Source: Arcobacteraceae bacterium
GTDB taxonomy: Bacteria; Campylobacterota; Campylobacteria; Campylobacterales; Arcobacteraceae
NCBI GenBank assembly: GCA_963677755.1
Contig: OY782506.1
Coordinates: forward strand, 958,137 to 1,022,136
DNA length: 64,000 nt
Direction: 5' to 3'
Shown piece after piece: positions 17,909-46,917 of the stretch. A program made the position numbers and the translations under genes. Each line of letters opens with the position of its first letter. Position 1 is the stretch's first letter. The notes below the pieces were generated by a model that was given only the letters and a program-made list of their open reading frames with translations, did no database searches and was not told where the DNA came from.

Positions 17909-19735
17909 TTAGATTATTAAATACCTTTTTCCCTCTTTATTTTCTATACTACTTGTTTGGTCTAGATAATCTAAATAGGCTATCATATATTTTCTACTCA
18001 TATTATATTTTTGTTTAAAGTTTTTAATATCTATATATCCCTCTTCTTTGATAATATTTTTCATAGAGGTTATTAAGTTAGAGAGTACTTGTACCTCTAC
18101 AAATAAGTTGTGTTGTATCCTTATTAGAAGTTTTTTCTTTGTAAGTGATTTTAAAACATTATCGCCAAGTTTTCTATCAATATCTAAATCATCATATATA
18201 TTATATGGAGCTGTTGGGGTAAACCCCTCATTTTTTAATCTTTGTAATATGATATTAGATAACTTATCTTCAATATTCTCTTTTATATTACTATTTTTAT
18301 ATAGATTTCCCTCTTGGGTAAGTATATTTTCGTTGCACAGTTCTTGTAATGCAAGCTCTATAAAAGTATCACTTGCCCAAACAAGTCTTAGTCCAATAGA
18401 GCTATTTGATAGTAATGCATATTTATTTTTTGTGTAGATATTTTTAATAATATTTTTAATAGTCTCTTTAGTCTCTATTGGATAGATAACTAAAGATTTT
18501 TCATCTATAAAACAGTTCACCATATTATTTGCAAATCGTAAAGCTTCTTCGTGACTAAGGGCAAATCTTTGAGCAGAAGATACCAAACCTAAACCTTTTT
18601 TATGTACTTGCAATAATATTTTGTAAGCATCTGAAATATTGTTTTTTTCCAACACTTTTAAAAGTTCTAATTTTTGTGATTTTTTCATTGGGTCTATAAT
18701 TGGGTTTAAAATAATTCCACCAGCAATAGTGGTATTCCCTTGTCTAATAATTAACTTCTCACCATAAATTGAAAAAATATCTTCATTTGCTTTAATTGTT
18801 GCAAAACCATTTTCTAATATTAAAACTCTTGCTTCGATTTTTTTTGAACCTATGTAGATTGAATATACTACATTATGAGAAAGCTCTTTCCCTTTTAATA
18901 TACTATACGAAATATCTACTTGATTAAAACCTCTTAAAAAGCCTTTTTTACTAATTACAAAACCTTTTTTGATAAGTTTTGTGTCAATACTTTGTAGATT
19001 TAACGCTGCTCTATTTGAGATATTTGCAGTTTTTGTATCTTCTCCATGTACTTGAATTGCTTTTAATTTTACCTCTTTTTTTATATCACAGATAAAAACT
19101 TTCTCATCTTGCGATATAGGGTTTCCAAGAACTGTACCTGTTACAATAGTACCACTTCCTTTTGTATTAAAAACTCTATCTACATAATATCTAAAAAAGT
19201 TTTCAGATGGTTTTGTATCTGCTTGAAGTTCAAAAAGTCCCTCTTTTAATTCTTCAATAGAATCTTCATCAAATATAGAGACACTTTTTGATAAAACAAT
19301 ATCAAAATCATAAGAGTTGATAAACTCAATTATCTCATCTGTATTTTTTTGAAGCTCTTGTGGTGAAACTAAATCTTTTTTTGTGATAACTACAATTGCT
19401 TTTTTTAATCCTAGTATATTTAATATATCAAGATGCTCTATAGTTTGAGGCATAATTTTCTCTTTTGCACTGACAACTATCATAACAACATCAAAACTAA
19501 ATGCACCAGCAATCATATTTTTTACCAGTTTTTCATGTCCTGGAACATCTATAAAAGCGATATTCTTTTCACCTTGTGTAAGGTTAGAAAAAGATAAGTC
19601 TATGGTGATACCTCTTTGTTTTTCCTCATTTGTAGTATCACCCTCATAGCCATTAAGTGCTTTAACTAAAGCTGTTTTACCATGGTCAATATGTCCACAA
19701 GTTCCTACTATATAATTATACATCGCAAATTTCAC
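17909..19735 (-). CDS. selB: selenocysteine-specific elongation factor SelB
   Basis: 608 aa. GTPase motifs GHIDHGKT and DVPGHE, long C-terminal winged-helix extension, and a 20-nt overlap with selA. Confidence 0.92.
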   Translation of the reverse strand: MKFAMYNYIVGTCGHIDHGKTALVKALNGYEGDTTNEEKQRGITIDLSFSNLTQGEKNIAFIDVPGHEKLVKNMIAGAFSFDVVMIVVSAKEKIMPQTIEHLDILNILGLKKAIVVITKKDLVSPQELQKNTDEIIEFINSYDFDIVLSKSVSIFDEDSIEELKEGLFELQADTKPSENFFRYYVDRVFNTKGSGTIVTGTVLGNPISQDEKVFICDIKKEVKLKAIQVHGEDTKTANISNRAALNLQSIDTKLIKKGFVISKKGFLRGFNQVDISYSILKGKELSHNVVYSIYIGSKKIEARVLILENGFATIKANEDIFSIYGEKLIIRQGNTTIAGGIILNPIIDPMKKSQKLELLKVLEKNNISDAYKILLQVHKKGLGLVSSAQRFALSHEEALRFANNMVNCFIDEKSLVIYPIETKETIKNIIKNIYTKNKYALLSNSSIGLRLVWASDTFIELALQELCNENILTQEGNLYKNSNIKENIEDKLSNIILQRLKNEGFTPTAPYNIYDDLDIDRKLGDNVLKSLTKKKLLIRIQHNLFVEVQVLSNLITSMKNIIKEEGYIDIKNFKQKYNMSRKYMIAYLDYLDQTSSIENKEGKRYLII

Positions 19736-21065
19736 TTACTATAGCTATAACAGTGTTTAGTTCTGATTCTTGAATAGTTCTAAAATCTAATAAAAATTTA
19801 TCATCTTCAATCCGTCCTATCACTTTTTTATCTCTAAAAAGTTTTTCAATTTTACTTGGTTTGTAATTTTTAAACTCTATAGTTAAAGCAATAGTTGGTA
19901 TTTTTCTATTAGGGGTTGTCCCTCCACCAATCAATGTTTGAGTCTCAATAATAGTAGATTTACAAATATCTTTTATTTTATTTTCTACTTTAGTTGCCCT
20001 TTGTTTTAAAGTATCTATAGGGGTAAAAAGCATATTAAGTGTAGGGATTTTCTCTTTTTTATCAAGTAAAAGTGAAATGATATTATCTTCTAAAATTGCT
20101 AGAGTGATTTTATCAACACGCAACATTCTTAGTAGTTGATTTTTTTTCAGTTGCTCAATATACTTTTTTTTACCTACAATAATCCCTGCTTGTACTGACC
20201 CTAGTAGTTTATCTCCTGAAAAACTTACCAAACTTGGATTAGATCTCATTATCTCTTTAACACTAGGCTCTGTTTGATTTAGATTGTATGGTAGATCAAT
20301 CATATGTCCACTACCCATATCAAAATAATCTATAAGATTGTTTTTTGTAGCTACTTCAACTATCTCTTCATGGGAAACTTCACTTGTAAAACCCTCAATA
20401 GAGTAGTTTGACTTATGAACTTTCATCAATATAGCACTATTCTCATTACAAGCGTTTTCATAGTCTTTTAGATGTGTTTTATTTGTAGTTCCTATCTCTT
20501 TTAAAATAGCACCACTACTAGACATAACATCAGGAACTCTAAAACTACCACCAATCTCCACAAGTTCTCCTCGACTTACTACTGCTTCTTTATTTTGAGC
20601 AAAAGTGTTAAGGACTAAAAATACAGCACTCGCGTTATTATTCACTATTAAAACATCTTCACACTCTAAAAGTTCACATAAGGCTTTTGATATATGTGAG
20701 TATCTTTCTCCCCGTTTCCCTTTATCTAGGTCATATTCTAAATTATTGTATGAGGTAACAATATCTTTTACTTTTTCAAAACTCTCTGGAGCTATAAGGC
20801 TTCTGCCTAAGTTTGTATGGACTATGATACCTGTTGCATTTATAACTTTTTTTAAAGATGGTGAGATGATATCTTGATACTCATTTATCACTTTTAGAGT
20901 AAGAAGCTCCTCATCTATAGTAGTTATATCTTTGTTTATAATACCTATTCGTAAATCATCAATAATCTTTTTTGATATTTTGGTAACAAGTTTTGTTGAT
21001 AGATTATCAAATGCACTATTTTGTACAAATTTATCTACTTTTGGGATAGACTTAAGTAAAAGCAT
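19716..21065 (-). CDS. selA: L-seryl-tRNA(Sec) selenium transferase SelA
   Basis: 449 aa. PLP-lysine motif FSGDKLLGSVQAGIIVG. Sits next to selB and tRNA-Sec. Confidence 0.93.
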   Translation of the reverse strand: MLLLKSIPKVDKFVQNSAFDNLSTKLVTKISKKIIDDLRIGIINKDITTIDEELLTLKVINEYQDIISPSLKKVINATGIIVHTNLGRSLIAPESFEKVKDIVTSYNNLEYDLDKGKRGERYSHISKALCELLECEDVLIVNNNASAVFLVLNTFAQNKEAVVSRGELVEIGGSFRVPDVMSSSGAILKEIGTTNKTHLKDYENACNENSAILMKVHKSNYSIEGFTSEVSHEEIVEVATKNNLIDYFDMGSGHMIDLPYNLNQTEPSVKEIMRSNPSLVSFSGDKLLGSVQAGIIVGKKKYIEQLKKNQLLRMLRVDKITLAILEDNIISLLLDKKEKIPTLNMLFTPIDTLKQRATKVENKIKDICKSTIIETQTLIGGGTTPNRKIPTIALTIEFKNYKPSKIEKLFRDKKVIGRIEDDKFLLDFRTIQESELNTVIAIVSEICDV

Positions 21066-21117
21066 TTTTACCCTTTCAGTTTAATTTAATCTTTATAGTG
21101 TAAAATTTCTCTGTTAG

Positions 21118-21217
21118 TGGGGGGTATGTGATCCTGGTGGACACCACAGGTTTCAACCCTGATTGGAGGTATTTGTGTAAACGCCTCGGTAGGTTCGATT
21201 CCTACACCTTCTCACCA
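21118..21217 (+). tRNA. selC: tRNA-Sec (anticodon UCA)
   Basis: Canonical T arm GTAGG-TTCGATT-CCTAC (21189-21205). 7-nt loop TT-TCA-AC with TCA at 21153-21155. 6-bp D stem with one bulge and a 4-nt loop (TGGT). Long extra arm (21166-21187) and encoded CCA (21215-21217). The acceptor pairs the G-run 21119-21125 with 21206-21212 using several G-U pairs, so the exact 5' end is uncertain. Confidence 0.7.
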
Positions 21218-21379: not shown

Positions 21380-23653
21380 TCATACCTCTATTTTATTTTC
21401 AAACTCTTTATCTTCAGTGTTTGCTACAGCTTCTTTTGCTAAAAGGTCTGTTTCTATAGCTACTTGTTTTGCTTTGTGTGCTATTTGTGCATTATTTTGT
21501 GTTTTTTGATCTAAAGCATTGACAGCACTATTTATTTGTTGGATACCTTCAAGTTGCTCTTTTGAACTGTTTTCAACATCGTTAATGAGTTCAATAGTGT
21601 TAAAAATATTTTTGTTGAGTGTTGTATATCCGTTTGTCATCTCATCTGCAATACTTTTCCCATAATTTGCTCGTGTTGTAGCTTTTTCAACAAGATTTTT
21701 AATCTCATTTGCAGCTTCTGCACTTCTACTAGCTAAGTTTCTTACCTCTTGTGCAACAACGGCAAAACCTTTTCCAGCTTCTCCCGCAGTTGCTGCTTCA
21801 ACAGCTGCATTTAAAGATAGAATATTTGTTTGAAATGCTATTTGGTCTATAACTGTAATAGCTTCATTAATTGCAGTTACCTCTTGATTGATCTCGTCCA
21901 TTGCAGTTGTTGTTTTTGTAGCGAGATTTTGACCTTGATTAACAGAAGTTGTTACCTCTTCTGCAAAAGCAGCCATTTTTGATATATTGTGTGTATTGTT
22001 TGAGATATTTGTTGTGATCTCTTCAAGTGCTGCAGCTGTTTGTTCTAAAGATGATGCAGCTTCTGTTGAGTTCTGATTTAAAGTATCAACATTATTTAAA
22101 AGAATATCACTACTTTTGTCCAAAGTAATTCCTAATTTTCTATTTTCAATTAAAATATTTGTAATAGAGTCTCTTAAACTATTTACACCAATACAAAGTT
22201 TGAGTTGGTGTGCTTTTATCCCTTGTGTATCAACTGTATTGAGGTAGTTGTTTTTTGTATATTGGTCTAATACTGTTAGTACATTATTGATATTTATCTC
22301 TATTTTTTCGCCCATTTGATTAAGAAGTTTGGTAAGTTCTTGTAAGATAGGATTATCACTTTTTGTCATTACTCGTTGTGATAGATTGCCTTGTTCAAAT
22401 TCAGCTAAAACAGCAATACTTTCCTGAATGAGTTGATTGTCAAGCTCAATTGTTTTTTGTGTTTTTTTAATATTATGGTTAATTAGATGACTCATAATTC
22501 CTATCTCATCATCTGATTTTACTTCCATGATTTCTATCTTATCTTTCTCTTTATTTATATATGCAAAAAAATCTATAAGTCCAGATTGAAGTTTGTTTAG
22601 TGGAGATATTATTAATCTTTTTGTTACTAAAAATATAGCAAGAGAGATAACCAAAAGTATACTAATGCTTATTGCATAAAGGATATTTCTCATAATATAA
22701 CTTTCCACTAAAAATTCATCAATTTCAGATGTTAAAAGAAGTTTCCATTTTCTCTCTTTGTAGTCTAGATATACAATGTGTTTTAAATTATTTTTATTTG
22801 TATAATTTAGTGACCCGTAGTTATTTTTGTATAAAGTTTCTATAAAATTAAATCCATTATCATCTTGTAGTTTATAGATATTTTCTTTACTATGAATAGG
22901 GTCTAAAATCACATCCCCTTTTGTTTTTGTACTTAAGATAGAAAGATACCCTTTTGTTCCAATTTTAATTTGTTTTAGTGTTTCTAAAAGTTTATTCATA
23001 CTTTTAGTGTAGTTATACCCAACATATAAGATACCAATAAGTTCTCCATCTTTTATAATTGGATTGTATACAGCCATATAATCATTTCCAAAAAGTTTTG
23101 CAGTACCAAAATATCTCTCTTTATTCATTATATGTTTATATGCAGGAGATTTTTTCCCTAAAAATGTACCCAAAGTTCGAGTTCCATCACCTCTTTTTAA
23201 TGAGGTAGTAACCCGCACAAAATCATCTCCTTGTTTTGCAAATACAGTTGCTGTTGAACCTTTGATTTTTGTATAGTTATCCACAAAGTCAAAGTTAAGG
23301 TTAAGTTGCTCCCCGTTATTAGTTATAAGGGGTGTTTGGACATTATTTACTAAAATAGTTTTAGAATAATCTATCTCAATATTAGAAAATTGAGACTCAA
23401 AAACTTCAAAAAGTTTATTTGCTATCCCTTTTAATGAATCATCATACACCTCCAAAGTGTTTTTAATAGAAAAAATTCTTTTTTCTAATTGTGTATGAAC
23501 TTGATCTTTGATAATTGATTGTGAGTAGGAGATTGAAAGTGTTGTTAAGCCTATAAAGCCAATGCAAAGTAATGAGATGAGTGTAACATTAATCTTTTTG
23601 ACCAACGAATCCATTTTGAACATAAAGTACCCTTTGAAAATTATTTTATACAA
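21380..23653 (-). CDS. methyl-accepting chemotaxis protein with Cache-type periplasmic sensor
   Basis: 757 aa. Cache-like region ([18 protein letters not shown]...GTFLG...[19 protein letters not shown]), TM helix, HAMP, and the conserved signalling hairpin [37 protein letters not shown]. The true start may be an internal Met (MFKMDSL). Confidence 0.9.
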
Positions 23654-23770: not shown

Positions 23771-24808
23771 CTATTGTACAACAATTGGTGTTTCTTTTCT
23801 TGAAACTATCTCTCCAACTATTGTTGCATAACCAAAAGTGAAATCTTCAATTCTTTTTAAATATTCCTCTGCATCTTTTGGGTCAATAGCGATTAGAAGT
23901 CCTCCAGAAGTTTGTGCATCACAAAGAATTTGCTTTTGTATTTCAGATATATGTGAAGCATAAGAGACTTTATCTTCTAGGTATTTTTTATTTTTTTTAC
24001 TACCACCTGGAACTACATCTTGCTTTATGAGCTCTTCTACTTTATTAAATACAGGTATATTATCATTGTATAGTTTATAAGTAATATCCTCTCTTGTAGA
24101 TTCTAAACTATGTCCTAACAGACTAAATCCTGTAATATCAGTACATGCATCTACACGGTACTCTTTAAGGATTTTTGATGTTTCATAGTTTAAACACTCC
24201 ATAACCTTTATCGCCTCTTTTGTTGTCTCAATATCTAATAAGTCTCTTTTTATAGCAGTGGTTAATACCCCTAATCCAATTGGTTTTGTAAGTATTAAAA
24301 GGTCTCCTATTTTTCCACTATTATTTTTTAAGATATTAGTTGGGTGTATCATACCTGTCACACTAAGTCCATAATACATCTCAGGTGTTTCAATAGTGTG
24401 TCCACCCATTAAAACTCCATTACACTCTTTTATCTTATCATTTCCACCACGCAACATCTCATTTAAAACTTCACGATTAAAGTTTTTAGCATCAAACCCA
24501 ACTATATTCATAGCAGTTTTTACATCGGCACCCATTGCAAATATATCTGACAATGAGTTAGCTGCAGCAATTTTCCCATAAATATAAGGATCATCAACAA
24601 CAGGTGTTATAAAATCAAGTGTTTGTACTAAAGCTTCATTTTCATTTATTTTAAAAACAGAGGCATCTTCACTATTCTCAAATCCTACAAGTATATTTTC
24701 ATTATCTGGTTTAAGTTGGCAAATTGTTTGTTTTAGATCCTCCGGACCCATTTTTGCCGCGCAACCAGCTGCTTGTACAAATTTGGTTAATTTATATTGA
24801 CTATTCAT
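23771..24808 (-). CDS. selD: selenide, water dikinase SelD (Cys-type)
   Basis: 345 aa. N-terminal AAGCAAKMGP loop corresponding to the catalytic Cys/Lys loop, and an AIR-synthase-like fold. Confidence 0.9.
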   Translation of the reverse strand: MNSQYKLTKFVQAAGCAAKMGPEDLKQTICQLKPDNENILVGFENSEDASVFKINENEALVQTLDFITPVVDDPYIYGKIAAANSLSDIFAMGADVKTAMNIVGFDAKNFNREVLNEMLRGGNDKIKECNGVLMGGHTIETPEMYYGLSVTGMIHPTNILKNNSGKIGDLLILTKPIGLGVLTTAIKRDLLDIETTKEAIKVMECLNYETSKILKEYRVDACTDITGFSLLGHSLESTREDITYKLYNDNIPVFNKVEELIKQDVVPGGSKKNKKYLEDKVSYASHISEIQKQILCDAQTSGGLLIAIDPKDAEEYLKRIEDFTFGYATIVGEIVSRKETPIVVQ

Positions 24809-25122
24809 TAAAACTCTTTATTTGTATATTATTATAAGAATATTAGAGATTATATCCCTATATCCTACAACTTACGCTAATTATCTTATTAGTATAGTAT
24901 AAATAAAATTAAAGTTTGCAAAATAAAAAGGTTAATAAAATTTTACTCATTAAGCTCAAATTTATTAATATTATTTTATAGTTTTATTTTATAAGAATAA
25001 AATAAGTTATAACTTACTTTATTATTTGAAAGGTCTAAGGTTTAGATATCCATGTATTAAAGATAGAATTACTAACATTCCTTCTTTCTCATGTAAAATA
25101 AAATTATAATTAAGGAAATATA

Positions 25123-26445
25123 ATGGGTGTAGAACAACATAAAGAGCTACTTTCAGATATTGGTGTAGATGTAGAGAGACATGCAAAAATGATGACAATG
25201 GGTTTAGAGTCTTATAAAAACCAATTTATGTCTCAACAAAATAGACCAGAGGGGATGAAATATTTTGATTGGTTTATGAGTGAGATTCAAGGTGATAGAA
25301 TTGCTGAGATAAATGAACTAAAAAAGAAGAAAAAACCTGCTGTTGGAACATTTTGTATATTTGTTCCTGAAGAGATTATCGTTGGTGCTGGTGGGGCCTG
25401 TTTTGGTCTTTGTGGAGGAAGCCCTGCTACTATAGCTGATGCAGAAACAGAACTTCCACGAAATATTTGCCCATTGATCAAATCAGCACATGGTTTTAAG
25501 TTACAAAAGACATGTGCTTATACACAAAGTTCAGATTTTATTTACGGGGAAACAACTTGTGAAGCAAAAAAGAAAACATGGGAGATTTTAAATAAACATC
25601 ATCCTGTTCACGTGATGAATATACCACACATGAAAAGGGAAAAAGATTTAAAGATGTGGAAAGAGGAGATTGTTGAGTTTAAAGAACATATTGAAGAAGT
25701 TACAGGGGAAAAACTCTCTTTAGAAGAGATGCTTAACGGAACTAAAATTATCAATGAAAAAAGAAAAGCTATGAATAGATTGGATTCATTGAGAGGTTTA
25801 AATCCTGATGTTGTTCCTATTAGTGGAAAAGATGCATTATTTGTAAATCAAATGGGATTTTTAGATGAGCCAGTAAGATATACTGAAAAAGTAAATGAAC
25901 TTTGTGATGAGTTAGAAAAAAGAGTTGAGGAAAAAGTTTCAGTATTTGAAGAAAATACACCAAGAATCATGGTACTTGGAACTCCAATTGCCCCACCAAA
26001 CTGGAAACTCCATACAGCAGTTGAGGGTTCAGGTGGAGCTATTATCAATGAAGAATCATGTATTGGTCATAGATACTATAAAGATAATGTAGATTTAGAT
26101 AATATAGAAACAGAAGATGATTTAATGGGTGAATTGATGAAAAGATATAGTGCAGTTGATTGTGCTTGTTTTACACCTAATACACCTAGAATTGATAAAA
26201 TATTAGAGATGTATAAAGATAGAAAAGCTGATGGAGTTATCTACTATACTTTATCTTTTTGTCATACATATAATGTGGAATCTCATTTAGTAACAGAAGC
26301 TTTAGAAGCGGCAGGAATACCATGTTTAGTTATAGAATCTGATTATTCTCCTGAAGATGCTGGACAAATTAAAACTAGAGTTGAAGCATTCTTAGAAAGT
26401 ATATCTTTTAAAAATAAAGCCTTGAAATTTAAATCAAATAGTTAA
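25123..26445 (+). CDS. HgdB/BcrC-family protein of the double-cubane-cluster (DCCP-like) reductase type
   Basis: 440 aa with many conserved Cys (FCIFVPEE, CFGLCGG, NICPLIK, ETTCEAKK, ESCIGH, DCACFTP, SFCHTYN) and the C-terminal ...VIESDYSPEDAGQIKTRVEAFLE typical of 2-hydroxyacyl-CoA dehydratase-like proteins. A cognate activase gene follows. Confidence 0.75.
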   Translation: MGVEQHKELLSDIGVDVERHAKMMTMGLESYKNQFMSQQNRPEGMKYFDWFMSEIQGDRIAEINELKKKKKPAVGTFCIFVPEEIIVGAGGACFGLCGGSPATIADAETELPRNICPLIKSAHGFKLQKTCAYTQSSDFIYGETTCEAKKKTWEILNKHHPVHVMNIPHMKREKDLKMWKEEIVEFKEHIEEVTGEKLSLEEMLNGTKIINEKRKAMNRLDSLRGLNPDVVPISGKDALFVNQMGFLDEPVRYTEKVNELCDELEKRVEEKVSVFEENTPRIMVLGTPIAPPNWKLHTAVEGSGGAIINEESCIGHRYYKDNVDLDNIETEDDLMGELMKRYSAVDCACFTPNTPRIDKILEMYKDRKADGVIYYTLSFCHTYNVESHLVTEALEAAGIPCLVIESDYSPEDAGQIKTRVEAFLESISFKNKALKFKSNS

Positions 26446-26446
26446 T

Positions 26447-27208
26447 ATGTATTGGGGCGTTGATGTTGGTTCCACATATACTAAAATATGTGGAATTAAC
26501 GAAAAAAAAGAGATTATAGATACACAAGTGATACCAACAATTGTAAATCAAGATGAGATAGTAAAAGAGTATCTAAAAGATAAAAATGTACAGATGCTTG
26601 TATCAACAGGATATGGAAGACATATGATTGAAGATACTTTCTCTTGCCCTATAATCAGTGAGATAAAAGCACATGCAAAAGGGGCACATTTTTTTCAAGA
26701 GGAAGCTCAAATGGTTGTTGATTTAGGTGGTCAAGATAGTAAAGTGATTTTACTAGATAAAACAGGTGGATTTATAGACTTCAAAATGAATGATAAATGT
26801 GCAGCAGGAACTGGAAAGTTTTTAGAGATAGCATCAAGTAGAATGGGGTTGGGTTTAGAAGAATTTTCTAAAATTGGGTTTGAGGCAGATAAAGAGCTTA
26901 CTATCTCTAGTATGTGTGCAGTCTTTGCTGAATCAGAAGTTATCTCTTTAATAGCAAAGAAAGAGAGTGCTGCAAATATATGTTTTGCTGTTCATGAGTC
27001 AATAGCTTCAAGATTGGCTTCAATGGCAAGAAAGTTTGCAATAAAAAGTGAATATATTGTATTTACAGGTGGTGGAGCATTAAATGGTTTTTTAGTAGAC
27101 CTTTTATCGAAGAAGTTAGAAAAAAGTGTAGTTGCAGCTTCTCATCCACAGCTTGTAGGTGCTATAGGTGCAGCACTAAGTGGTTATGAAGTTTTTCATG
27201 AGATTTAA
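26447..27208 (+). CDS. BcrA/BadF/HgdC-type ATPase activase (electron-transferring ATPase)
   Basis: 253 aa. ASKHA-fold motifs GVDVGSTYTKI and DLGGQDSKV. Cluster-bridging Cys in NDKCAAGTGKFLE and SSMCAVFAESEVI. Confidence 0.85.
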   Translation: MYWGVDVGSTYTKICGINEKKEIIDTQVIPTIVNQDEIVKEYLKDKNVQMLVSTGYGRHMIEDTFSCPIISEIKAHAKGAHFFQEEAQMVVDLGGQDSKVILLDKTGGFIDFKMNDKCAAGTGKFLEIASSRMGLGLEEFSKIGFEADKELTISSMCAVFAESEVISLIAKKESAANICFAVHESIASRLASMARKFAIKSEYIVFTGGGALNGFLVDLLSKKLEKSVVAASHPQLVGAIGAALSGYEVFHEI

Positions 27209-27213
27209 AATCA

Positions 27214-27245
27214 AAAAAAATAGACTTTTTAAGTCTATTTTTTAT
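27214..27245. terminator. bidirectional terminator
   Basis: AAAAATAGACTT-ttt-AAGTCTATTTTT between convergent genes. Confidence 0.55.
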
Positions 27246-27583
27246 TAAAGAGTTACAATATTTTCTGTAAGAAACATTTTTGCAGTATCCATAGCATTTC
27301 CAACAACACCAACTTTTAGATCATCTCTTTTATTATAAAAATCCAAACAAGTACCACAAGAATAGATATCTATACCTTTTGCTTCTAGTTGCTTTAAAGT
27401 TGCTAAAACTTCATTAGCTTCACTTGCAGTTGTTAATAAAACAGCACTATTAATACATACAATTGCTTTTGGTTTTTCTTCTTGTTCTAGAATAGCTTTT
27501 AAAAATCCCTTTATTAAAATTGATCCAAGTTCACCCTCACCAACTTTATCTGACTTTAGAAGTATTGTATTTTTTCTTTCCAT
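27245..27583 (-). CDS. DsrE-like protein equivalent to the C-terminal half of selenium-metabolism protein YedF
   Basis: 112 aa. LLKSDKVGEGELGSILIKGFL...IVCINSAVLL...YSCGTCLDFY. No TusA/SirA CPxP domain is present. Confidence 0.7.
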   Translation of the reverse strand: MERKNTILLKSDKVGEGELGSILIKGFLKAILEQEEKPKAIVCINSAVLLTTASEANEVLATLKQLEAKGIDIYSCGTCLDFYNKRDDLKVGVVGNAMDTAKMFLTENIVTL

Positions 27584-27769
27584 AATTTCCCTTTTTTATT
27601 AGATAAATAATTTTACTTTATTAATTATTAATTAAAGGTAAAATATTTTTTACTATTTAAGTTTATTTTTATTCTAAATCTAATATGATTCCTATTAGAA
27701 GTTCAAGCCATAGGTTATGGTGTTAAGTTGAAGTATATTTTACTTTACCTTTTGTTTAGGAGGTTTCCT

Positions 27770-28912
27770 ATGAACAAAATAGAAGAACAAAAAGTTTTTT
27801 ACAAAGGGAAAAGAATGGAAAGAAGATTATTTTTAAAAGGTGCAACATTGCTTGCAAGTTCAGCAGTTATTGCACCTAATTTATTAGTTGCTAATTCAAA
27901 TATGTATAGATTTGGTATCACAAAAGATACAAGAGTATTTAGTGTAGAAAACACTTTTAATTTAGAGCTTAACGATAAAGTAGCACAGTTATGGGTTCCA
28001 CTACCTTTAAATAGTGATTATCAAAAAGTTTTAGATATCTCTTATGAGGGTGATTTTGATGAAGGTTTTATATCAAACGATAATCCATATAATACAAGAT
28101 TAGTTTATGCAAAATGGGATAAAAATAGCAAATCAAGAAAAATGAAAGTAAAGTTTACAGTAAGTATGAGTGAAAGAAGTGTTAATCTTGACTTAGCAAC
28201 TAAAAGTACTAACTTCCCATCTGAGGTTCAAGAGTTTATAAAAGGGACTGCACATACACCAATTTCAAAAACAATTACTAATTTTGTTTATACATTAGTA
28301 GATAAAAATGATACACCATTGGAAAAAAGTCAAAAAATATTTGATTGGACTGTTGCTAATATGTATAGAGATGAGAAAGTTTTAGGTTGTGGAGTAGGGG
28401 ATGCTACTAGAATTTTAACAGAAAAACTTTTTGGTGGAAAATGTACAGATGTAAGTTCTATTTTTGTAGCACTTTTAAGAAATGCAGGAATTCCAGCACG
28501 AGAAGTTTTTGGTATAAGAGCAGGAAGTTCAAAAATATCAAAATCTTGTGGTAAATCAGATGAAAAAGGTTTTGCTAAAATCACTGGTGGACAACATTGT
28601 CGAGCAGAATTTTATCTAAATGGAATAGGTTGGGTACCAGCAGATCCAGCAGATGTAACAAAAGTTATGAAACAAGAAAAAAGAGATCTAAATGATAAAA
28701 AAATCCAAAATCTTAAAAAATATTTCTTTGGAAATTGGGAGATGAACTGGGTTGCATTTAATTATGCTAGAGATTTTGTATTAAATCCAAAACCGGCACA
28801 GTATCCATTAAATATGTTTGGTTACCCTTATGCTGAGATGGATGATGAAGTTGTAGATTATTACGATGCTAAAAACTTCTCTTATAAATACAGTTCACAA
28901 GAAAGATTATAA
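27770..28912 (+). CDS. Tat-exported transglutaminase-like (cysteine peptidase fold) protein
   Basis: RBS AGGAGG before ATG 27770, preferred over the track TTG at 27728. Twin-arginine signal ERRLFLKGATLLA. Transglutaminase core GGKCTDVSSIFVALLRNAGIPAR with downstream H (GGQHCRAEFY) and D (WVPADP). Confidence 0.75.
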   Translation: MNKIEEQKVFYKGKRMERRLFLKGATLLASSAVIAPNLLVANSNMYRFGITKDTRVFSVENTFNLELNDKVAQLWVPLPLNSDYQKVLDISYEGDFDEGFISNDNPYNTRLVYAKWDKNSKSRKMKVKFTVSMSERSVNLDLATKSTNFPSEVQEFIKGTAHTPISKTITNFVYTLVDKNDTPLEKSQKIFDWTVANMYRDEKVLGCGVGDATRILTEKLFGGKCTDVSSIFVALLRNAGIPAREVFGIRAGSSKISKSCGKSDEKGFAKITGGQHCRAEFYLNGIGWVPADPADVTKVMKQEKRDLNDKKIQNLKKYFFGNWEMNWVAFNYARDFVLNPKPAQYPLNMFGYPYAEMDDEVVDYYDAKNFSYKYSSQERL

Positions 28913-29234
28913 GATTAGTAATTATAAAGTTATAGTAACAGCTGTTATTGCAGCGTTACTTTCAACTAGTTGTTGTTTACCAGCATTTTTATTTCTGTTT
29001 TTTGGTATATCTATAGGCTCATTATCTTTTTTAACACAATTAGATTTTTTAAGAATCCCACTTGGGATTCTCTCTATTGTTTTTTTTATAATATATTTTT
29101 TAACAAAAAGAAAAAAAGTACTATGTGAGTGCAACGGTAAAAAAATAAAAACATATATTGGTTTGTTTTTATTGTGTTTAGGATTATTAGCTTTACTATT
29201 TTATCCTGAATTTTCAGTTTATTTTGTGGAGTAA
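28866..29234 (+). CDS. MerT-like small membrane protein
   Basis: Three TM helices, a CC pair in TM1 (LSTSCCLPAF) and a second Cys pair in the TM2-TM3 loop (LCEC). The start is uncertain: the only ATG overlaps the upstream gene by 47 nt. Confidence 0.55.
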   Translation: MLKTSLINTVHKKDYKISNYKVIVTAVIAALLSTSCCLPAFLFLFFGISIGSLSFLTQLDFLRIPLGILSIVFFIIYFLTKRKKVLCECNGKKIKTYIGLFLLCLGLLALLFYPEFSVYFVE

Positions 29235-29237
29235 AAA

Positions 29238-29513
29238 ATGAAAAAATTATTTATAGTGTGTGTAGTATATTTTTTAATAAACATAGCTACCTTTGCCCAA
29301 ACTATTAATATCAAAATTGATAAGATGCATTGTCCATTATGTACAACAATGGTTAAAAAAGCTATAGCTAAAGTTGATGGAGTAGAGAAGGTAAAAGTAA
29401 CTTTACACACAAAAACAGCAAAAGTAAAGTATGATGAATCAAAAATAAAGCAAAGTGATATTTTAGAAGCTATTAAAACAACAACATATACGGGTGTAGT
29501 GATAAAAGAATAA
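29238..29513 (+). CDS. periplasmic heavy-metal-associated (MerP-like) protein
   Basis: 91 aa. Signal peptide followed by an HMA fold with the MHCPLC metal-binding motif. Confidence 0.75.
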   Translation: MKKLFIVCVVYFLINIATFAQTINIKIDKMHCPLCTTMVKKAIAKVDGVEKVKVTLHTKTAKVKYDESKIKQSDILEAIKTTTYTGVVIKE

Positions 29514-29524
29514 AGGGAAATTAG

Positions 29525-30562
29525 ATGTTTGAAGATTATCTAGAAGTTTATGAAGTTGTGAATATTTTAGCATTAATTGTTGGGATATTATTTGGAGCAA
29601 TTGCTCAAAAAAGTCAATTTTGTTTTGGTGGTGGTTTGAGAGACTATATAGAAACAAACTCTACAAAAAGAGCATCTTCAGTTGTAATGGCTATGATTAG
29701 TGCAGTTGTAACAACATATTTTGTAACAACATATTTTGAAGTAGATTTAACCCAAACTCCATATTTAAAAGAGAGTGTCAACTATTTTACTATTGTATTT
29801 GGTGGTGTTTTATTTGGTATAGGTATGATTGTATCAGATGGTTGTAGTGCAAGACATATGGTGAAGTCTTCCCAAGGGGATATCTATTCTATTATTGCAC
29901 TTTTATTTATTGCAATATCAGCTTATGCAACTATAAAAGGGGTGTTAAACCCTGTGATTTTTCCATTAATACAAAACACTTTTTTACTTGAACTCTCATC
30001 ATATATTTCAAATTTTGCTTTAAATATATATTTTGTTGTAGTTGTTTTGACAATGCTTTTACTCTTTTTAATTAAAGGTGATTTCAAAAAGATTTTAGGA
30101 CTTTATGATGGGATACTTATAGGTATTTTGGTTGGTGTAATGTGGTATGTTACAGGTTATATAGGAGCTGAAAGTATGGAGAAAACAATCTCATTAAGTG
30201 CTTTGTCTTTTATATATTCTAGTGGTGAAACACTTCAAACAATCACTGATTACAATCTTATAGGGATGAGAAACTCCGTTGTTCTTATCATTGGTATTTT
30301 TATTGGTGCTTTTTTGATGAGTTTGGTAAATAAGAGCTATACTAAAGCGTGTAATATAACTCCTCAACCAAATAAATTAAGATCTAAAATAGTTGGTGGA
30401 ACTTTAATGGGAGTTGGTGGTGTTATGGCTATTGGTTGTACTATGGGGCAAGGATTAAGTGGTCTTTCTACACTTGCATTAGCTTCTACTGTTGCAATAA
30501 GCTCAATTTTAGTATCTGCTTATTTTAGTATCATAATTTTAAAAAAATATAATAAAAATTAA
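29525..30562 (+). CDS. YedE/YeeE-family membrane protein (FdhT-like putative selenium/sulfur compound transporter)
   Basis: 345 aa polytopic protein with two repeated halves carrying conserved Cys motifs (SQFCFGGGLRD, DGCSARH, IGCTMGQGLSG). Confidence 0.8.
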   Translation: MFEDYLEVYEVVNILALIVGILFGAIAQKSQFCFGGGLRDYIETNSTKRASSVVMAMISAVVTTYFVTTYFEVDLTQTPYLKESVNYFTIVFGGVLFGIGMIVSDGCSARHMVKSSQGDIYSIIALLFIAISAYATIKGVLNPVIFPLIQNTFLLELSSYISNFALNIYFVVVVLTMLLLFLIKGDFKKILGLYDGILIGILVGVMWYVTGYIGAESMEKTISLSALSFIYSSGETLQTITDYNLIGMRNSVVLIIGIFIGAFLMSLVNKSYTKACNITPQPNKLRSKIVGGTLMGVGGVMAIGCTMGQGLSGLSTLALASTVAISSILVSAYFSIIILKKYNKN

Positions 30563-30595
30563 AAAAGGTTCACAATGTTTTGTGAACCTTTTTTA
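30561..30595. terminator. bidirectional terminator
   Basis: AAAAAAGGTTCACA-atgttt-TGTGAACCTTTTTT. Confidence 0.6.
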
Positions 30596-30613
30596 ATTGG
30601 AAATAACTAACTT

Positions 30614-31276
30614 TTATATCTCATTTAACGCAATCTCATTAAATTTATAAGTTTTATAAGCTGTTTTAACTAAAATATCTTTTTGTGCTAACTCTTTAAA
30701 AAGTTTTATAAGGGTTGGTTTTGATATTGAAATTTTATCTATTATTTCACTATAGGAAGTGATGAGTATATTTTCTTTATCAAGATTGTTCATAATGTAT
30801 TTTATCACATCAACTTGTTTACTATCAGTTATTGCAGATATAGTTTTAATAATATTAATATTTTTTTGTATCTGTTTTTTTTGTACAATTGGTAGTAAAA
30901 CATCATGAAGGGTATTAAGCAACTCTTTTATATTAATTGGTTTTATAATATAGTTTTCTACTTTTAGTTGTATAGCATCAAGGAGATATTTTGTATCTGT
31001 ATGTGCTGTTGTTAAAATAGCAGGTATTGAGATGTTTTTAACTTTTAAATCTCTTAAAAAGTCAATACCATTTTCATTTTCAAGTAGAATATCTGATATA
31101 ATAAGATCAACTTTTTTTGTTTCAATCACCTCTAAAGCGTCTGCTATTGTCTCTACACTATAAATTTTATGAACAAAATCTTCTAAAATATCAGTGGTAT
31201 GTTTTGATAAATCAATATCATCCTCTAAGTATAAAATATTTGCATCAAGCAATATATTTAAATTTCTACTTTCCAT
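30614..31276 (-). CDS. response regulator (receiver plus C-terminal HTH-like domain)
   Basis: 220 aa. Receiver with LYLEDD and DLIISDILL Asp pocket. C-terminal ISKPTLIKLFKELAQKDIL helix-turn-helix-like segment. Confidence 0.8.
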   Translation of the reverse strand: MESRNLNILLDANILYLEDDIDLSKHTTDILEDFVHKIYSVETIADALEVIETKKVDLIISDILLENENGIDFLRDLKVKNISIPAILTTAHTDTKYLLDAIQLKVENYIIKPINIKELLNTLHDVLLPIVQKKQIQKNINIIKTISAITDSKQVDVIKYIMNNLDKENILITSYSEIIDKISISKPTLIKLFKELAQKDILVKTAYKTYKFNEIALNEI

Positions 31277-31284
31277 AAATTTAT

Positions 31285-32850
31285 CTATCCTTGTATTGGA
31301 ATTTTAATTATAAATAAAGAACACTTATCGTTATGAACATCATCTATTTTGTGGTAAATATTTTTGCAACTTATAAAACCATTCATATGTTTTTCAATAA
31401 TTTGTTTTGACATATAAAGTCCTATACCTGTACCCGCACTTTTGTACTTAGTTGTATAGTACGGTTCAAATATTTGCTCTATAATATTCTCATCTATTCC
31501 ACCACCATTGTCTATAAAATGGATAACTGCATATTCTTTGTATTTGCTTATAATTATTTTTATCATTTTATCATGTTTTATAGTAGTTGTTGCTAAAGCA
31601 TCTTTAGAATTAGAGATAATATTTAAAAAAACATGTGAGAGTTCGTTATAATATGTGTTTAATTCAATGTCACATCGTATCTCAAGTTTTAAACAAATTT
31701 TTTGTTTATCAAGTAAGTATTTTGATAATTCTACAGCATGTTCAGCACAATCATGTAAATAAAAGACACTTTTTGCTTTGTCAGGACTAAAAAAGTTTTT
31801 AAAATCATCAAGAGTATTGGACATGTTATTTGCTAAAAGAAGTGCATCTTGAACCTTAGTTTCCATATATTCATGGGTTAATTTTCCCATAGACATTTTT
31901 GTTTGAAACCCTTGTATTATCATAATTATAGAACTTAAAGGTTGTCTCCATTGATGAGCAATGTTATTAAGCATCTCTCCTAAACTTGCAAGTTTTGCTT
32001 GTTGAAACATAATAATATCTTTTTTTCTATTATTTGTTACCTCTTGAATTACCCTTTTTTCTAAAGAATTATTGAGTTTTTTCAGCTCTTTTGTTTTGTT
32101 TTCTATATTAACTTCTAATATCTTATGGAGGTTTTTAAAATTATTAATTAAAATCATTGATAGAGCAATTGAAAAAATAAATACCAAAATTATTGAGATG
32201 ACTGAACCTATAATTATAATATTAAAAACTTGTTGAGTTTCTATTTTTTCTTTTATAGCTAAAGATAAATCATAATTAATTAAACTTGTAATATATATGT
32301 TTATGGCATTAATTTCTAAATAAAGCTTTGTAAAATCATCTTTATTGTTGTTCTCTTTTATTTGTGAAAGAATGGTATTAATTAATACAATTTTTTTATC
32401 AATATTATTGATGACATTGATTTTTAAAACTTGGTCTTTTTTATGTGAAATATTTGGTTGTAAAAATTTTTTTATAAATTGAGTAAGATAAATTAATGGA
32501 GTATTTGTATTATTAGTTTCATGTTTATATTCATACCAATTTGATTTTATCAATTGCTTTGCTAATGTAATCACCTCTTTAGAATCTTCTAATGTAATAC
32601 TCTTATTTTCTACATCAATAAGAGTATCTTGTATATTTACTTTATAAGCATCTTTCATATTTTCTAGTTTAACAAACAGCGTTGTTCTTTGCTCAAATAA
32701 TTTATCAAAATCTTGCTTTATTGAAAATGTAGATATAAGTGAAAGGATTACAATTGTGAACATTCCTCCAGATATAACAAAAATAAGAAATTTTGTTTTA
32801 ATTTCAAAGTTTAATTGATTAAAATATGTAAAAATATCATTTAATTTCAT
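31285..32850 (-). CDS. sensor histidine kinase
   Basis: 521 aa. Two TM helices flanking a periplasmic domain, H-box NIAHQWRQPL, and ATPase motifs DNGGGID and GTGIGLY. Confidence 0.85.
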   Translation of the reverse strand: MKLNDIFTYFNQLNFEIKTKFLIFVISGGMFTIVILSLISTFSIKQDFDKLFEQRTTLFVKLENMKDAYKVNIQDTLIDVENKSITLEDSKEVITLAKQLIKSNWYEYKHETNNTNTPLIYLTQFIKKFLQPNISHKKDQVLKINVINNIDKKIVLINTILSQIKENNNKDDFTKLYLEINAINIYITSLINYDLSLAIKEKIETQQVFNIIIIGSVISIILVFIFSIALSMILINNFKNLHKILEVNIENKTKELKKLNNSLEKRVIQEVTNNRKKDIIMFQQAKLASLGEMLNNIAHQWRQPLSSIIMIIQGFQTKMSMGKLTHEYMETKVQDALLLANNMSNTLDDFKNFFSPDKAKSVFYLHDCAEHAVELSKYLLDKQKICLKLEIRCDIELNTYYNELSHVFLNIISNSKDALATTTIKHDKMIKIIISKYKEYAVIHFIDNGGGIDENIIEQIFEPYYTTKYKSAGTGIGLYMSKQIIEKHMNGFISCKNIYHKIDDVHNDKCSLFIIKIPIQG

Positions 32851-33989
32851 TCTTCAACCTTTATGAAGTTGTTATTTTCATATTTAAAAAGATACACTTT
32901 ATTAAAAAGTTGCTGGTTTTTATATTCAATTTTTAATCCTTTTAAAGTGTTTTGTGGAATTTTTTTTAATTCTTCAATAAACTTACTTCTAGTGATACTC
33001 CCTTTAATATTCTTTAGTGCTGTTACAACAATTTTTGCATTTAGAAATGCTTCAAGAGATATAAACCCAGCTTCATAGTTGGAATCATACGCTTTTAAAA
33101 TTTTGTGATACTCTTTAATGATAGGTATATCTAAATTATTATAGCTAGGTACAACCTGTGAAAATAAAATATTTTTTGTATGACCATCAAGCTTTTTTAT
33201 CATAGCACTTGCATCACCAAAAGAAATATTACAAAAGATAGTATTTTTAAAATTCTTATTTTTTTTAGCTTTTTTGATAAAAAGGGTATTCGCTTTATTT
33301 GCACCAACCATTATTATTGCCTCTGGTTTAGCATTATTAATTGCATGAAATGCATGCCTAATTGATAGTGTATTTCGCTTATAACTTCCTTCTGCTACCA
33401 ATGATAAATTATATTTTTTTAAAGTGTTGACAACACTTATATATCCATCTTCACCATATTCATCATTTTGATAAAATACTGCAATTTTCGTAAACCCTTT
33501 TTTATTATGAAGATATTTGATTTGCTCTTCTATCTCTTGCTGGTAAGAGCTTCTAAAATTAATTATATTTTCATAATAATCATCTCTTAAAAATGAAGCA
33601 CCAGTAAAAGCAGCAATAAATGGTATATCAGTTTGTCTTAATATTGGTAATATATTTTTTACCGTAGGAGTTCCTACAAATCCATATAATGCAAAAATTT
33701 TGTCATCTTTTATGAGCTTCTTTATGTTTTGTAATGTTAATTGAGGTTCATATTTGTCTTCATATGCTACAAGTTTTATTTTTTTATTATTTAATAGATT
33801 GTTAGTATTGATATGATGAAAATAAGCATTTGTACCTAGTTCAACGGCATTCCCAAGTTCCTTTATAGTCCCTGTTTTAGGCAATGAACTTCCTATATAG
33901 ATAATGTTATTATCAAAACTTTTTTCTTTAAAAAAAAGAAATCCAATAGCTACAGCAACAATAAGAATTAGTAATATAAGTTTTTTCAT
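32847..33989 (-). CDS. periplasmic binding protein, type 1 (Leu/Ile/Val-binding-like), probable sensor partner
   Basis: 380 aa. Signal peptide, a PBP1-like pattern (IYIGSSLPKTG...GFVGTPT...FTGAS), and a 4-nt overlap with the kinase gene. Confidence 0.75.
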   Translation of the reverse strand: MKKLILLILIVAVAIGFLFFKEKSFDNNIIYIGSSLPKTGTIKELGNAVELGTNAYFHHINTNNLLNNKKIKLVAYEDKYEPQLTLQNIKKLIKDDKIFALYGFVGTPTVKNILPILRQTDIPFIAAFTGASFLRDDYYENIINFRSSYQQEIEEQIKYLHNKKGFTKIAVFYQNDEYGEDGYISVVNTLKKYNLSLVAEGSYKRNTLSIRHAFHAINNAKPEAIIMVGANKANTLFIKKAKKNKNFKNTIFCNISFGDASAMIKKLDGHTKNILFSQVVPSYNNLDIPIIKEYHKILKAYDSNYEAGFISLEAFLNAKIVVTALKNIKGSITRSKFIEELKKIPQNTLKGLKIEYKNQQLFNKVYLFKYENNNFIKVEE

Positions 33990-37311: not shown

Positions 37312-37320
37312 GAGTAAGAT

Positions 37321-37914: not shown

Positions 37915-37923
37915 GAGATAATT

Positions 37924-38880: not shown

Positions 38881-38881
38881 G

Positions 38882-45347: not shown

Positions 45348-45356
45348 GAGTAAGAT

Positions 45357-45950: not shown

Positions 45951-45959
45951 GAGATAATT

Positions 45960-46916: not shown

Positions 46917-46917
46917 G

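Follow-up and report, generated by a model that had tools for sequence, protein, structure and literature searches.

The window analysed here is a stretch of 64,000 nucleotides from an Arcobacteraceae bacterium (assembly GCA_963677755.1, contig OY782506.1, positions 958,137 to 1,022,136) with a G+C content of about 30%, and it contains a compact island of genes for selenium metabolism and formate dehydrogenase (FDH). Within this island, the gene for selenide, water dikinase (selD) is divergent from a two-gene block that encodes a double-cubane cluster protein (DCCP) and its ATP-dependent reductase (DCCP-R). In many phyla, pairs of this type show a non-random linkage, far beyond chance, to selD, yedF, yedE and further genes of selenium metabolism. 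The reading that we prefer, held at slightly less than even confidence, is that DCCP/DCCP-R is a dedicated enzyme of selenium metabolism, an ATP-driven reductase of very low potential that would convert carrier-bound selenium to selenide for SelD. A preliminary description of the locus, made from the DNA sequence, had proposed such a step, and every gene that it named between positions 23771 and 30562 was recovered where it had been placed in the list of open reading frames (ORFs). The proposal is reasonable but not original, in that both the link between DCCP and SelD and a role in the handling of selenium compounds are already published, and the locus is a real, new compositional variant of an association known from bioinformatics.

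The catalytic component of the pair (25123-26445, plus strand) is a protein of 440 residues with 12 cysteines. As the preliminary description had recognized, it is a bona fide double-cubane cluster protein. It scores 389.8 bits against PF06050 and 455.8 bits against NF040772 (“double-cubane-cluster-containing anaerobic reductase”, cutoff 350), and its residues 6-427 align to residues 4-421 of the DCCP of C. hydrogenoformans (7YYL_C/6ENO_A) with 463 bits and an E-value of 8e-138. The two proteins are 49% identical in a MAFFT alignment, and all 11 cysteines of the reference protein are kept in the window protein. Seven cysteines (C78, C97, C116, C146, C313, C347 and C380 in the window protein) are invariant in 89 out of 89 aligned family members. 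Their spacing is that of the published motif except for the first spacer, which has 18 residues as compared to the 19 that were printed. Taken literally, the published regular expression fails on both the window protein and the reference DCCP, and column conservation was used instead. The protein is predicted from these features to carry an [8Fe-9S] cluster and to carry out ATP-dependent reduction. Its closest homologs are found in Arcobacter and Halarcobacter genomes, at 88-93% identity.

The gene for the second component, DCCP-R (26447-27208, plus strand), starts 2 nucleotides past the stop codon of the DCCP gene and encodes an archerase-type activase of 253 amino acids. The earlier assignment of this protein to the BcrA/HgdC-type activases is borne out by a score of 224 bits against TIGR00241 and by both cluster cysteines, since C118 and C157 align with C115 and C152, the [4Fe-4S] ligands of the C. 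hydrogenoformans DCCP-R, to which the overall match is 138 bits (7YYL_E). The window pair thus resembles the characterized pair of C. hydrogenoformans (6ENO, 7YYL; Jeoung and Dobbek 2018, 2022) in the full-length homology, the cysteines and the adjacent ATPase, and ATP-coupled electron injection into the [8Fe-9S] cluster is presumably common to both. Neither dithionite nor Ti(III) citrate can reduce the cluster of the characterized enzyme, which depends on a delivery of electrons coupled to ATP, and the physiological function of the enzyme was stated to be unknown (Jeoung and Dobbek 2022). The window pair differs in being embedded in a selenium island. No selenium gene was seen in C. islandicus, the closest of the relatives sampled (DCCP 96% identical), on a truncated contig (L001) with no more than about 300 bp in front of the DCCP gene.

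The 2-hydroxyacyl-CoA dehydratases and the class I benzoyl-CoA reductases share with the window pair the PF06050 domain, an ATPase of the BcrAD_BadFG superfamily and the archerase principle. However, an identity with either was rejected on the scores, which are 108 bits against HadC (NF052456, cutoff 700) and 66 bits against BcrC (cutoff 421), and on the missing partner subunit. ORF and domain annotation of the window cluster revealed no second PF06050 gene with which an HgdAB- or HadBC-like heterodimer could be formed, and there is neither an alpha-subunit partner nor any gene for the metabolism of CoA esters nearby.

To place the pair in a wider context, we used a species-level scan with one genome per species and an alignment headed by the Carboxydothermus DCCP. 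It yielded 80 DCCP loci, none from Campylobacterota and not all of them phylogenetically independent. The flanks were searched with the window proteins, all of their ORFs were clustered, and curated models served to name representatives of those clusters that recurred. In 48 of the 80 loci, one or more selenium-linked families were present within 10 kb, and in 39 the block of DCCP and activase genes contained, or was immediately flanked by, a selenium-linked gene. Among the 30 loci for which the full 10-kb flanks were available, 22 contained at least one selenium-linked family and seven contained selD. The activase gene is a neighbor of the DCCP gene in 62-64 of the 80 loci, followed by DUF3343/Se_S_carrier (PF11823; 24 loci), the EF2568/SclA-type selenocysteine (Sec) lyase family (TIGR01977; 16), YedF (14), SelD (10), the LysR_Se regulator (NF040786; nine), YedE (TIGR04112; four), TusA (four), SelA and SelB (three each) and the transglutaminase-like family of the window (three). 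With flanks of 1.08 Mb in total, about 0.3 occurrences would be expected for a single-copy gene, which gives a Poisson P-value of about 1e-12 for selD. The preliminary description had named a lack of association with selD or yedE in other genomes as grounds for abandoning its proposal; these counts show the opposite for both, and for yedF as well.

The linked loci vary in gene order and, judged by their record titles, are distributed over at least seven phyla, which are Bacillota, Halanaerobiaeota, Desulfobacterota/Thermodesulfobacteriota, Actinomycetota, WOR-3, Chloroflexota and, including the window, Campylobacterota. Of the 10 clusters into which the DCCP sequences were grouped, they belong to numbers 1-7, and the three small clusters of paralogs are also found in selenium-linked loci. 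The idea that the pair merely lies by incidental synteny in an island of FDH and selenium genes, with no functional link to them, could draw on relatives that carry the pair alone and on the four transcription units into which the window genes are divided. It is strongly disfavoured, to the point of being barely credible, by the 10 selD and 14 yedF neighbors where about 0.3 were expected, by the independent architectures in at least seven phyla, and by a single co-directional run of these genes in Lebetimonas, described below.

The genes that most often lie directly beside the DCCP/activase block encode small cysteine carriers, with DUF3343 in 22 loci and YedF in eight. The usual order in the Clostridia is (SclA)-DCCP-DUF3343-DCCP-R, so that the gene for a cysteine carrier is placed between the two enzyme genes. 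A DUF3343 gene in this position was observed in 16 loci from Clostridia and their relatives (L019, L030, L031, L034, L037, L039, L040, L042, L046, L048, L058, L060, L065, L069, L077 and L080), often with an EF2568/SclA-type Sec lyase gene just upstream. A second PF06050 paralog directly beside the DCCP gene was observed in L037, L046 and L048 (about 8700-9900) and in L017, L023, L025 and L078; in Clostridium spp. this paralog is 36-38% identical to the window DCCP and might be part of a hetero-oligomer or represent a second enzyme. Clustering of all ORFs in the 80 flanks revealed no other metabolic enzyme that recurs beside DCCP across phyla. The next most recurrent neighbors are pyrimidine genes, which are apparently common to the Clostridium loci only.

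A carrier-bound substrate fits this distribution of neighbors. It is unlikely, in our estimate, that DCCP instead acts on a free small selenium compound, for example by cleaving the C-Se bond of methylated or organic selenium, or by reducing oxyanions of selenium or tellurium, in scavenging or detoxification. The DCCP substrates found in vitro so far are small molecules, DCCP genes occur in the type 1 mlp clusters proposed to act on methyl-selenium compounds (PMC10418091), and DCCP correlates with the selenocysteine-assisted organometallic (SAO) system (Haft and Gwadz, bioRxiv 10.1101/2022.07.06.499078), all of which would agree with such an activity. However, the genes directly beside the block are mostly those of cysteine carriers, rather than of transporters or methyltransferases, and the reduction of oxyanions does not require a very low potential. 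Moreover, no mlp or SAO homologs were noticed among the annotated genes of the window, although no search was aimed at them. The likeness to the SAO system extends to proteins of the DsrE and MerT/CopZ type that bear pairs of Cys or Sec residues (Haft and Gwadz). The MerT-like and HMA proteins of the window, described below, match the related NCBIfam models NF045683 and NF041115 weakly and below the cutoffs, and neither the MerB-like SaoL, the Sao ABC transporter nor SaoE was noticed in the window, again with no search aimed at them.

Another alternative is that the cluster traffics sulfur, for example as a persulfide reductase or relay for the FdhD-dependent sulfuration of the molybdenum or tungsten cofactor of FDH. 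TusA, DsrE, DUF3343, NifS-like and YeeE/YedE-family proteins all have relatives that handle sulfur, the permease of the window scores as near to TsuA as to YedE, the DCCP gene of Lebetimonas has fdhD as its divergent neighbor, and both the window and H. ebronensis have FDH operons on the flanks of the pair. Nevertheless, the markers enriched across phyla are specific for selenium (SelD, SelA/B, LysR_Se NF040786, YedE TIGR04112 and YedF TIGR03527), the co-occurrence at the genome level is with SelD, and the reduction of S(0) is thermodynamically easy. We therefore consider a function in sulfur traffic to be highly unlikely.

The relatives within Campylobacterota provide a closer comparison. In Lebetimonas (L081), the genes for DCCP, DCCP-R, a full-length YedF, a Tat-exported transglutaminase-like protein, a MerT-like protein fused to a YedF-N/TusA domain, an HMA protein, a DsrE protein and a Sec-containing SelD are contiguous and co-directional. 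The DCCP pair and selD apparently belong to one operon here. The genes selB and selA come next after selD, and fdhD is located upstream, in divergent orientation to the DCCP gene. The fusion gene (L081 13798-14379) encodes the cysteine of a CPxP motif in its N-terminal domain. The Lebetimonas SelD (L081 15024-16067) is a selenoprotein with an in-frame TGA codon (“AAG*AGK”), at a site where the window SelD has a cysteine. The arrangement of the window, minus the permease and a chemoreceptor, recurs in A. nitrofigilis and Arcobacter sp. KX21116, and H. ebronensis has DCCP, DCCP-R and a gene for 115 amino acids, presumed to be a YedF half, beside its FDH operons. This comparison indicates that the DCCP pair is a mobile two-gene unit with a small cysteine carrier as its most constant companion.

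The main rival to a role of DCCP in selenide supply is that selenium flows the reverse way, so that DCCP or its maturation needs selenium derived from SelD, for example as an atom bridging the cubanes. In that case DCCP would be supplied with selenium by the carriers and the Sec lyase, and its catalysis would lie outside selenium metabolism. That the carriers and the Sec lyase adjoin DCCP agrees with this, as does the nesting of DCCP genomes almost entirely within SelD genomes (955 of 970), which is expected if DCCP depends on SelD, and the reversed flow is listed as a formal possibility by Haft and Gwadz (bioRxiv 10.1101/2022.07.06.499078). However, the cluster has been described as [4Fe4S]-μ2S-[4Fe4S], and the enzyme that contains it is active on acetylene, hydrazine and azide. 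The characterized protein was reportedly made recombinantly. Furthermore, no metabolic partner outside selenium metabolism recurs beside DCCP, and the divergent LysR_Se regulators and the inclusion of selD in one co-directional run fit a role in the pathway better. Because of the lack of a recurrent non-selenium partner and the sulfur-bridged cluster of the characterized enzyme, we favour a pathway role over the reversed flow, which we judge to be improbable.

If DCCP acts on a carrier, the candidate in the window is a stand-alone C-terminal, DsrE-like half of YedF (27245-27583, minus strand). This protein of 112 amino acids has a CGTC motif at residues 76-79 and a score of 125 bits against TIGR03527 (cutoff 110), in keeping with the preliminary description, and matches only positions 83-193 of the model. 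The TusA-like N-terminal domain with its CPxP cysteine is absent from the short protein, and the gene is preceded by a gap of 144 bp. We regard it as a putative cytoplasmic selenium carrier. A YedF half of 113-115 amino acids adjoins DCCP in A. nitrofigilis, KX21116, H. ebronensis (where its identity is presumed) and L084, and stand-alone halves also lie next to DCCP in Desulfosporosinus-like and actinomycete loci.

The preliminary description had also listed a YedE/FdhT-like transporter, and this assignment holds at the level of the superfamily only. The permease (29525-30562, plus strand; 345 amino acids) matches PF04143 over its full length with 145.6 bits (cutoff 27), but it is not an ortholog of YedE or FdhT, as it scores 72.2 bits against NF033796 (YedE/FdhT, cutoff 350) and 64.9 bits against TIGR04112 (YedE, cutoff 200), as compared to 488 bits for a true YedE from L014. 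The score against TsuA is likewise low (86 bits, cutoff 400). A. nitrofigilis and Arcobacter sp. KX21116 have clusters that are otherwise the same but do not include the permease, which appears to be a lineage-specific addition to the operon, to which none of the models assigns a specificity. In Campylobacter jejuni, FdhT and FdhU (YedE and YedF) similarly represent membrane and carrier accessories that control the activity of the Sec-containing FDH. The window differs from this system in that its YedF half passes TIGR03527 without having the TusA-like N-terminal domain, and in that its permease fails the YedE/FdhT models.

Upstream of the permease gene are three genes that we refer to as the trio. 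The first encodes a transglutaminase-like protein (27815-28912, plus strand; the listed ORF starts at 27728) with a score of 73.3 bits against PF01841. Its likely start, MERRLFLK, contains a twin-arginine motif (RRxFLK) that is invariant in 38 homologs, so that export by the twin-arginine translocation (Tat) system is predicted, as in the preliminary description. Residues C192, C210, H261, C262, D277 and D280 are also invariant in the 38 homologs; they include a Cys-His-Asp triad (C210/H261/D277/D280), and the three cysteines are located in the motifs GCGxG, GGKCxD and QHCxAE. The AlphaFold model (pLDDT 82.6) consists of an N-terminal beta-sandwich and a transglutaminase core. A Foldseek search against PDB gave 3ISR, a putative cysteine protease, as the best match (E = 6e-17) and otherwise generic transglutaminase and cysteine-protease folds, which offer no functional clue, and a search of NCBIfam identified no model for the protein.

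The second gene of the trio encodes a MerT-like membrane protein (28866-29234, plus strand); it overlaps the end of the preceding gene, and its start codon is uncertain. The scores are weak and below the MerT cutoffs (20.2 bits against PF02411, cutoff 32.9; 16.3 bits against NF010314, cutoff 150). The cysteine pattern, read off the hydrophobic sequence and not off a topology prediction, is that of MerT, with C36-C37 in the first hydrophobic, predicted transmembrane segment and a CxC pair (C87/C89) after the second. The CC pair is present in the first hydrophobic segment of 65 out of 65 family members. The third gene encodes an HMA protein similar to MerP and CopZ (29238-29513, plus strand; 52.4 bits against PF00403, cutoff 24.8) with a CPLC motif and a hydrophobic, signal-like N-terminus. 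It remains below the MerP equivalog TIGR02052 (52 bits, cutoff 92.55), and the export signal was recognized by its hydrophobicity. A CxxC motif is present in 63 out of 63 HMA proteins encoded beside the transglutaminase gene, and a signal-like N-terminus in those inspected, suggesting that the protein is probably periplasmic. The Lebetimonas ortholog of the MerT-like protein reaches 48.5 bits to MerT, and the MerT/MerP-like pair of the preliminary description is confirmed.

A scan of metagenome contigs, with five aligned transglutaminase-like proteins as the query, gave 80 loci (L089-L168). The transglutaminase gene is followed by a MerT-like gene in 64 and by an HMA gene in 65 of these, and the exceptions are mainly incomplete contigs. 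The trio is adjoined by selD in 13 of the 80 loci, as compared to about 0.3 expected (P < 1e-15), and by selA and selB in eight. In seven loci (L104, L106, L107, L109, L111, L159 and L161), the MerT-like protein has an N-terminal YedF-N/TusA domain with the CPxP cysteine, and selD is adjacent in five of these seven (Fisher P = 0.001). As for the other two, the DCCP and DCCP-R genes are adjacent in L106, and L104 is a contig of 2.4 kb. Many trio loci have no selenium gene nearby, including some on contigs that resemble Pasteurellaceae or Enterobacterales in GC content and neighbors only and that have none within 8 kb, so that the trio is an independent module. The trio is a conserved module that often adjoins selD and appears to be undescribed; our literature search on MerT, transglutaminase and selD did not find it described as a selenium import relay. 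We infer a role in selenium metabolism for it, and it may be a thiol relay that imports selenium.

The MerP-MerT-MerA relay of mercury resistance also combines a signal-bearing HMA protein with a CxxC motif, a small membrane protein with a CC pair and a later pair of cysteines, and a reductase downstream, and the logic of thiol exchange would be analogous. However, a mercury-resistance reading of the MerT/MerP pair was rejected. Neither MerA nor MerR is present among the annotated genes at 14-49 kb of the window, no MerB was seen among the annotated window genes, and neither the MerT-like nor the MerP-like protein reaches its equivalog cutoff. Unlike in mer systems, the trio is linked to selD, and the fusion partner of MerT in the relatives is YedF-N/TusA rather than NmerA. 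The candidate reductase in the window is furthermore an ATP-dependent iron-sulfur protein, while MerA-type reductases are flavoproteins.

Taken together, these components suggest a route in five steps. In the periplasm, selenium would be captured by the cysteine site of the transglutaminase-like protein, with its three invariant cysteines and Cys-His-Asp residues, and by the CxxC motif of the MerP-like protein. The MerT-like protein would move it across the membrane by thiol exchange between the CC pair and the later cysteine pair, with the YeeE/YedE-family permease as an additional component in the window genome. A cytoplasmic carrier of the TusA/YedF type, here the DsrE-like YedF half with its CGTC motif, would take over the selenium as a perselenide, a selenotrisulfide or Se(0), which are the candidate substrates of DCCP. 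DCCP-R would then hydrolyse ATP and inject electrons into the [8Fe-9S] cluster of DCCP, which would reduce the bound selenium to HSe-. Finally, SelD would make selenophosphate, and SelA, tRNA-Sec and SelB would insert Sec into FdhA. The identity of each component, the conserved cluster ligands of DCCP, the genomic linkage, the co-directional run in Lebetimonas and the TusA::MerT fusions are observed, while the substrate, the direction of selenium flow and the role of each carrier are inferred. The fuller version, in which DCCP/DCCP-R is the missing selenium reductase of anaerobes and the trio a Mer-style import relay with the MerT::TusA fusion marking the point of hand-over, is a more speculative proposal, in which we have less trust than in the reductive step itself.

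An energetic argument can be made for the reductive step. The standard potential of Se/H2Se is about -0.40 V and the pKa1 is about 3.9, from which we calculate about -0.72 V for Se(0)/HSe- at pH 7 and about -0.54 V at micromolar selenide. The former value lies some 0.45 V under that of S(0)/HS-, and both are below ferredoxin, which would justify a coupling to ATP.

Several observations weigh against the proposed function. Thirty-two of the 80 DCCP loci have no selenium gene within 10 kb, and in Sulfurospirillum arcachonense and Sulfurospirillum sp. T05 the pair lies without a selenium gene within the same distance. The genes in the window form four transcription units, not one, and DUF3343, TusA, DsrE and NifS-like proteins also serve sulfur. 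For an S-Se bond held on a carrier, a less negative potential may suffice, and the nesting of DCCP genomes in SelD genomes equally fits a dependence of DCCP on SelD. As SelD is present in 38% of representative genomes and DCCP in 4.7% (Haft and Gwadz, bioRxiv 10.1101/2022.07.06.499078), the step cannot be a general requirement and must belong to a route that is optional or specialised, used perhaps with certain sources of selenium or when selenium is extremely limiting. In the literature, we found no biochemical or genetic experiment on DCCP and selenium, and no experimental paper that ties DCCP, DUF3343 or YedF to a reductase activity.

The association as such has been noted before. Haft and Gwadz (bioRxiv 10.1101/2022.07.06.499078, section 24) reported that 955 out of 970 DCCPs are encoded in assemblies that contain SelD and suggested that DCCP either processes selenium compounds or has a cofactor that contains selenium. 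A dehydratase subunit, an activase and a transglutaminase-like enzyme are among the STRING partners of YedE, YedF and DUF3343 (Lin et al. 2015), and DCCP and DCCP-R have been drawn in selenium gene clusters, with DCCP “provisionally linked to selenium metabolism” (PMC10418091). The known clusters in Firmicutes and Actinobacteria, such as Shel_25110-25470 of Slackia heliotrinireducens (Lin et al. 2015) and the clostridial SclA-DCCP-DUF3343-DCCP-R clusters, also combine the DCCP pair with SelD, YedF, SelA/B and cysteine carriers. The window differs from them in that DUF3343, SclA, LysR_Se and a true YedE are missing, in that only the C-terminal half of YedF is present, and in the addition of the periplasmic transglutaminase/MerT/MerP module. 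What is added here is the quantification of the neighborhood across phyla, the finding that genes for cysteine carriers turn up most often immediately next to the DCCP/activase block, the co-directional run in Lebetimonas that includes selD, and the trio with its TusA fusions as a candidate relay for selenium import.

The remaining selenium genes of the island are located on the other side of the DCCP pair. SelD (23771-24808, minus strand) scores 354.5 bits against TIGR00476 (cutoff 125) and has a cysteine, not Sec, at its active site in the N-terminal glycine-rich loop (“AAGCAAK”). Beyond it are tRNA-Sec with the anticodon TCA (21117-21213, plus strand; identified by ARAGORN and by Rfam RF01852 with 48.8 bits, gathering score 47), selA (19716-21065, minus strand; 561.8 bits against TIGR00474, cutoff 267.9) and selB for the selenocysteine-specific elongation factor (17909-19735, minus strand), which contains GTP_EFTU, SelB-wing_3 and Beta-barrel_SelB domains. 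A gene for a Cache_3-Cache_2 methyl-accepting chemotaxis protein (21380-23653) between tRNA-Sec/selA and selD is an insertion, as selA directly adjoins selD in A. nitrofigilis and KX21116.

The intergenic region between selD and DCCP contains a palindrome, GTCTAAGGTTTAGAT (25033-25047), that precedes the DCCP start by about 75 bp and may be an operator. A. nitrofigilis and Arcobacter sp. KX21116 share the palindrome, in a perfect form (GTCTAAG-G-CTTAGAC). A search for a regulon across the window returned one exact copy and no further copy beyond chance. An Rfam scan of the whole window matched tRNA-Sec only, and the selD-DCCP spacer gave no hit to a riboswitch or to any further known RNA. A promoter scan of the AT-rich DNA gave fewer sites than shuffled sequence, and the only credible feature is a terminator-like hairpin with a 19-bp stem (30557-30598) at the end of the unit formed by the trio and the permease.

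Between the selenium cluster and the FDH operons are genes for a response regulator, a histidine kinase and a periplasmic binding protein of the Peripla_BP_6 family (30614-33989), which may control FDH or selenium genes. The same set is kept in the same position in Arcobacter spp. (L086 14447-17827; L170 13538-16918), and in Lebetimonas it is found near FDH genes (L081 3057-6269). The fdhA-fdhB-fdhC-fdhD operon is present twice (34513-39709 and 42549-47745). The FdhA of the second operon (42549-45347, plus strand) is the catalytic subunit in its Sec form, with molybdopterin domains and an in-frame TGA at codon 181 (“QARIUHSPT”), and is a likely client of the selenium pathway. Its paralog in the first operon (34513-37311, plus strand) is 82% identical and has a cysteine at the Sec position. 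This pair of isoenzymes suggests that the supply of selenium in the habitat is fluctuating or limiting. Genes for a protein of about 555 amino acids with multiple ferredoxin domains and for a TorD/NarJ-type chaperone (Nitrate_red_del) are located between the two operons (39967-42226), and such a gene pair also adjoins the Lebetimonas island (L081 582-2970).

Two questions meet at this locus and become directly testable there. One is the physiological role of the DCCPs, a structurally characterized class with a cofactor that the authors of the structures liken to the clusters of nitrogenase. The other is how selenide is generated and delivered to SelD without a release of toxic free selenide, especially in anaerobes. 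If DCCP reduces carrier-bound selenium, this would explain the near confinement of DCCP to genomes with SelD, the expenditure of ATP, given that the potential estimated for Se(0)/HSe- is below that of ferredoxin, and the function of YedF and DUF3343, and the double-cubane protein class would gain its first physiological function. Since the presence of both Sec- and Cys-containing FdhA suggests that selenium is limiting, a scavenging route would carry selective weight in this organism. The transglutaminase/MerT/MerP trio represents a concrete new candidate for selenium uptake that is widespread in Campylobacterota and also found on contigs that resemble Pasteurellaceae in GC content and neighbors only.

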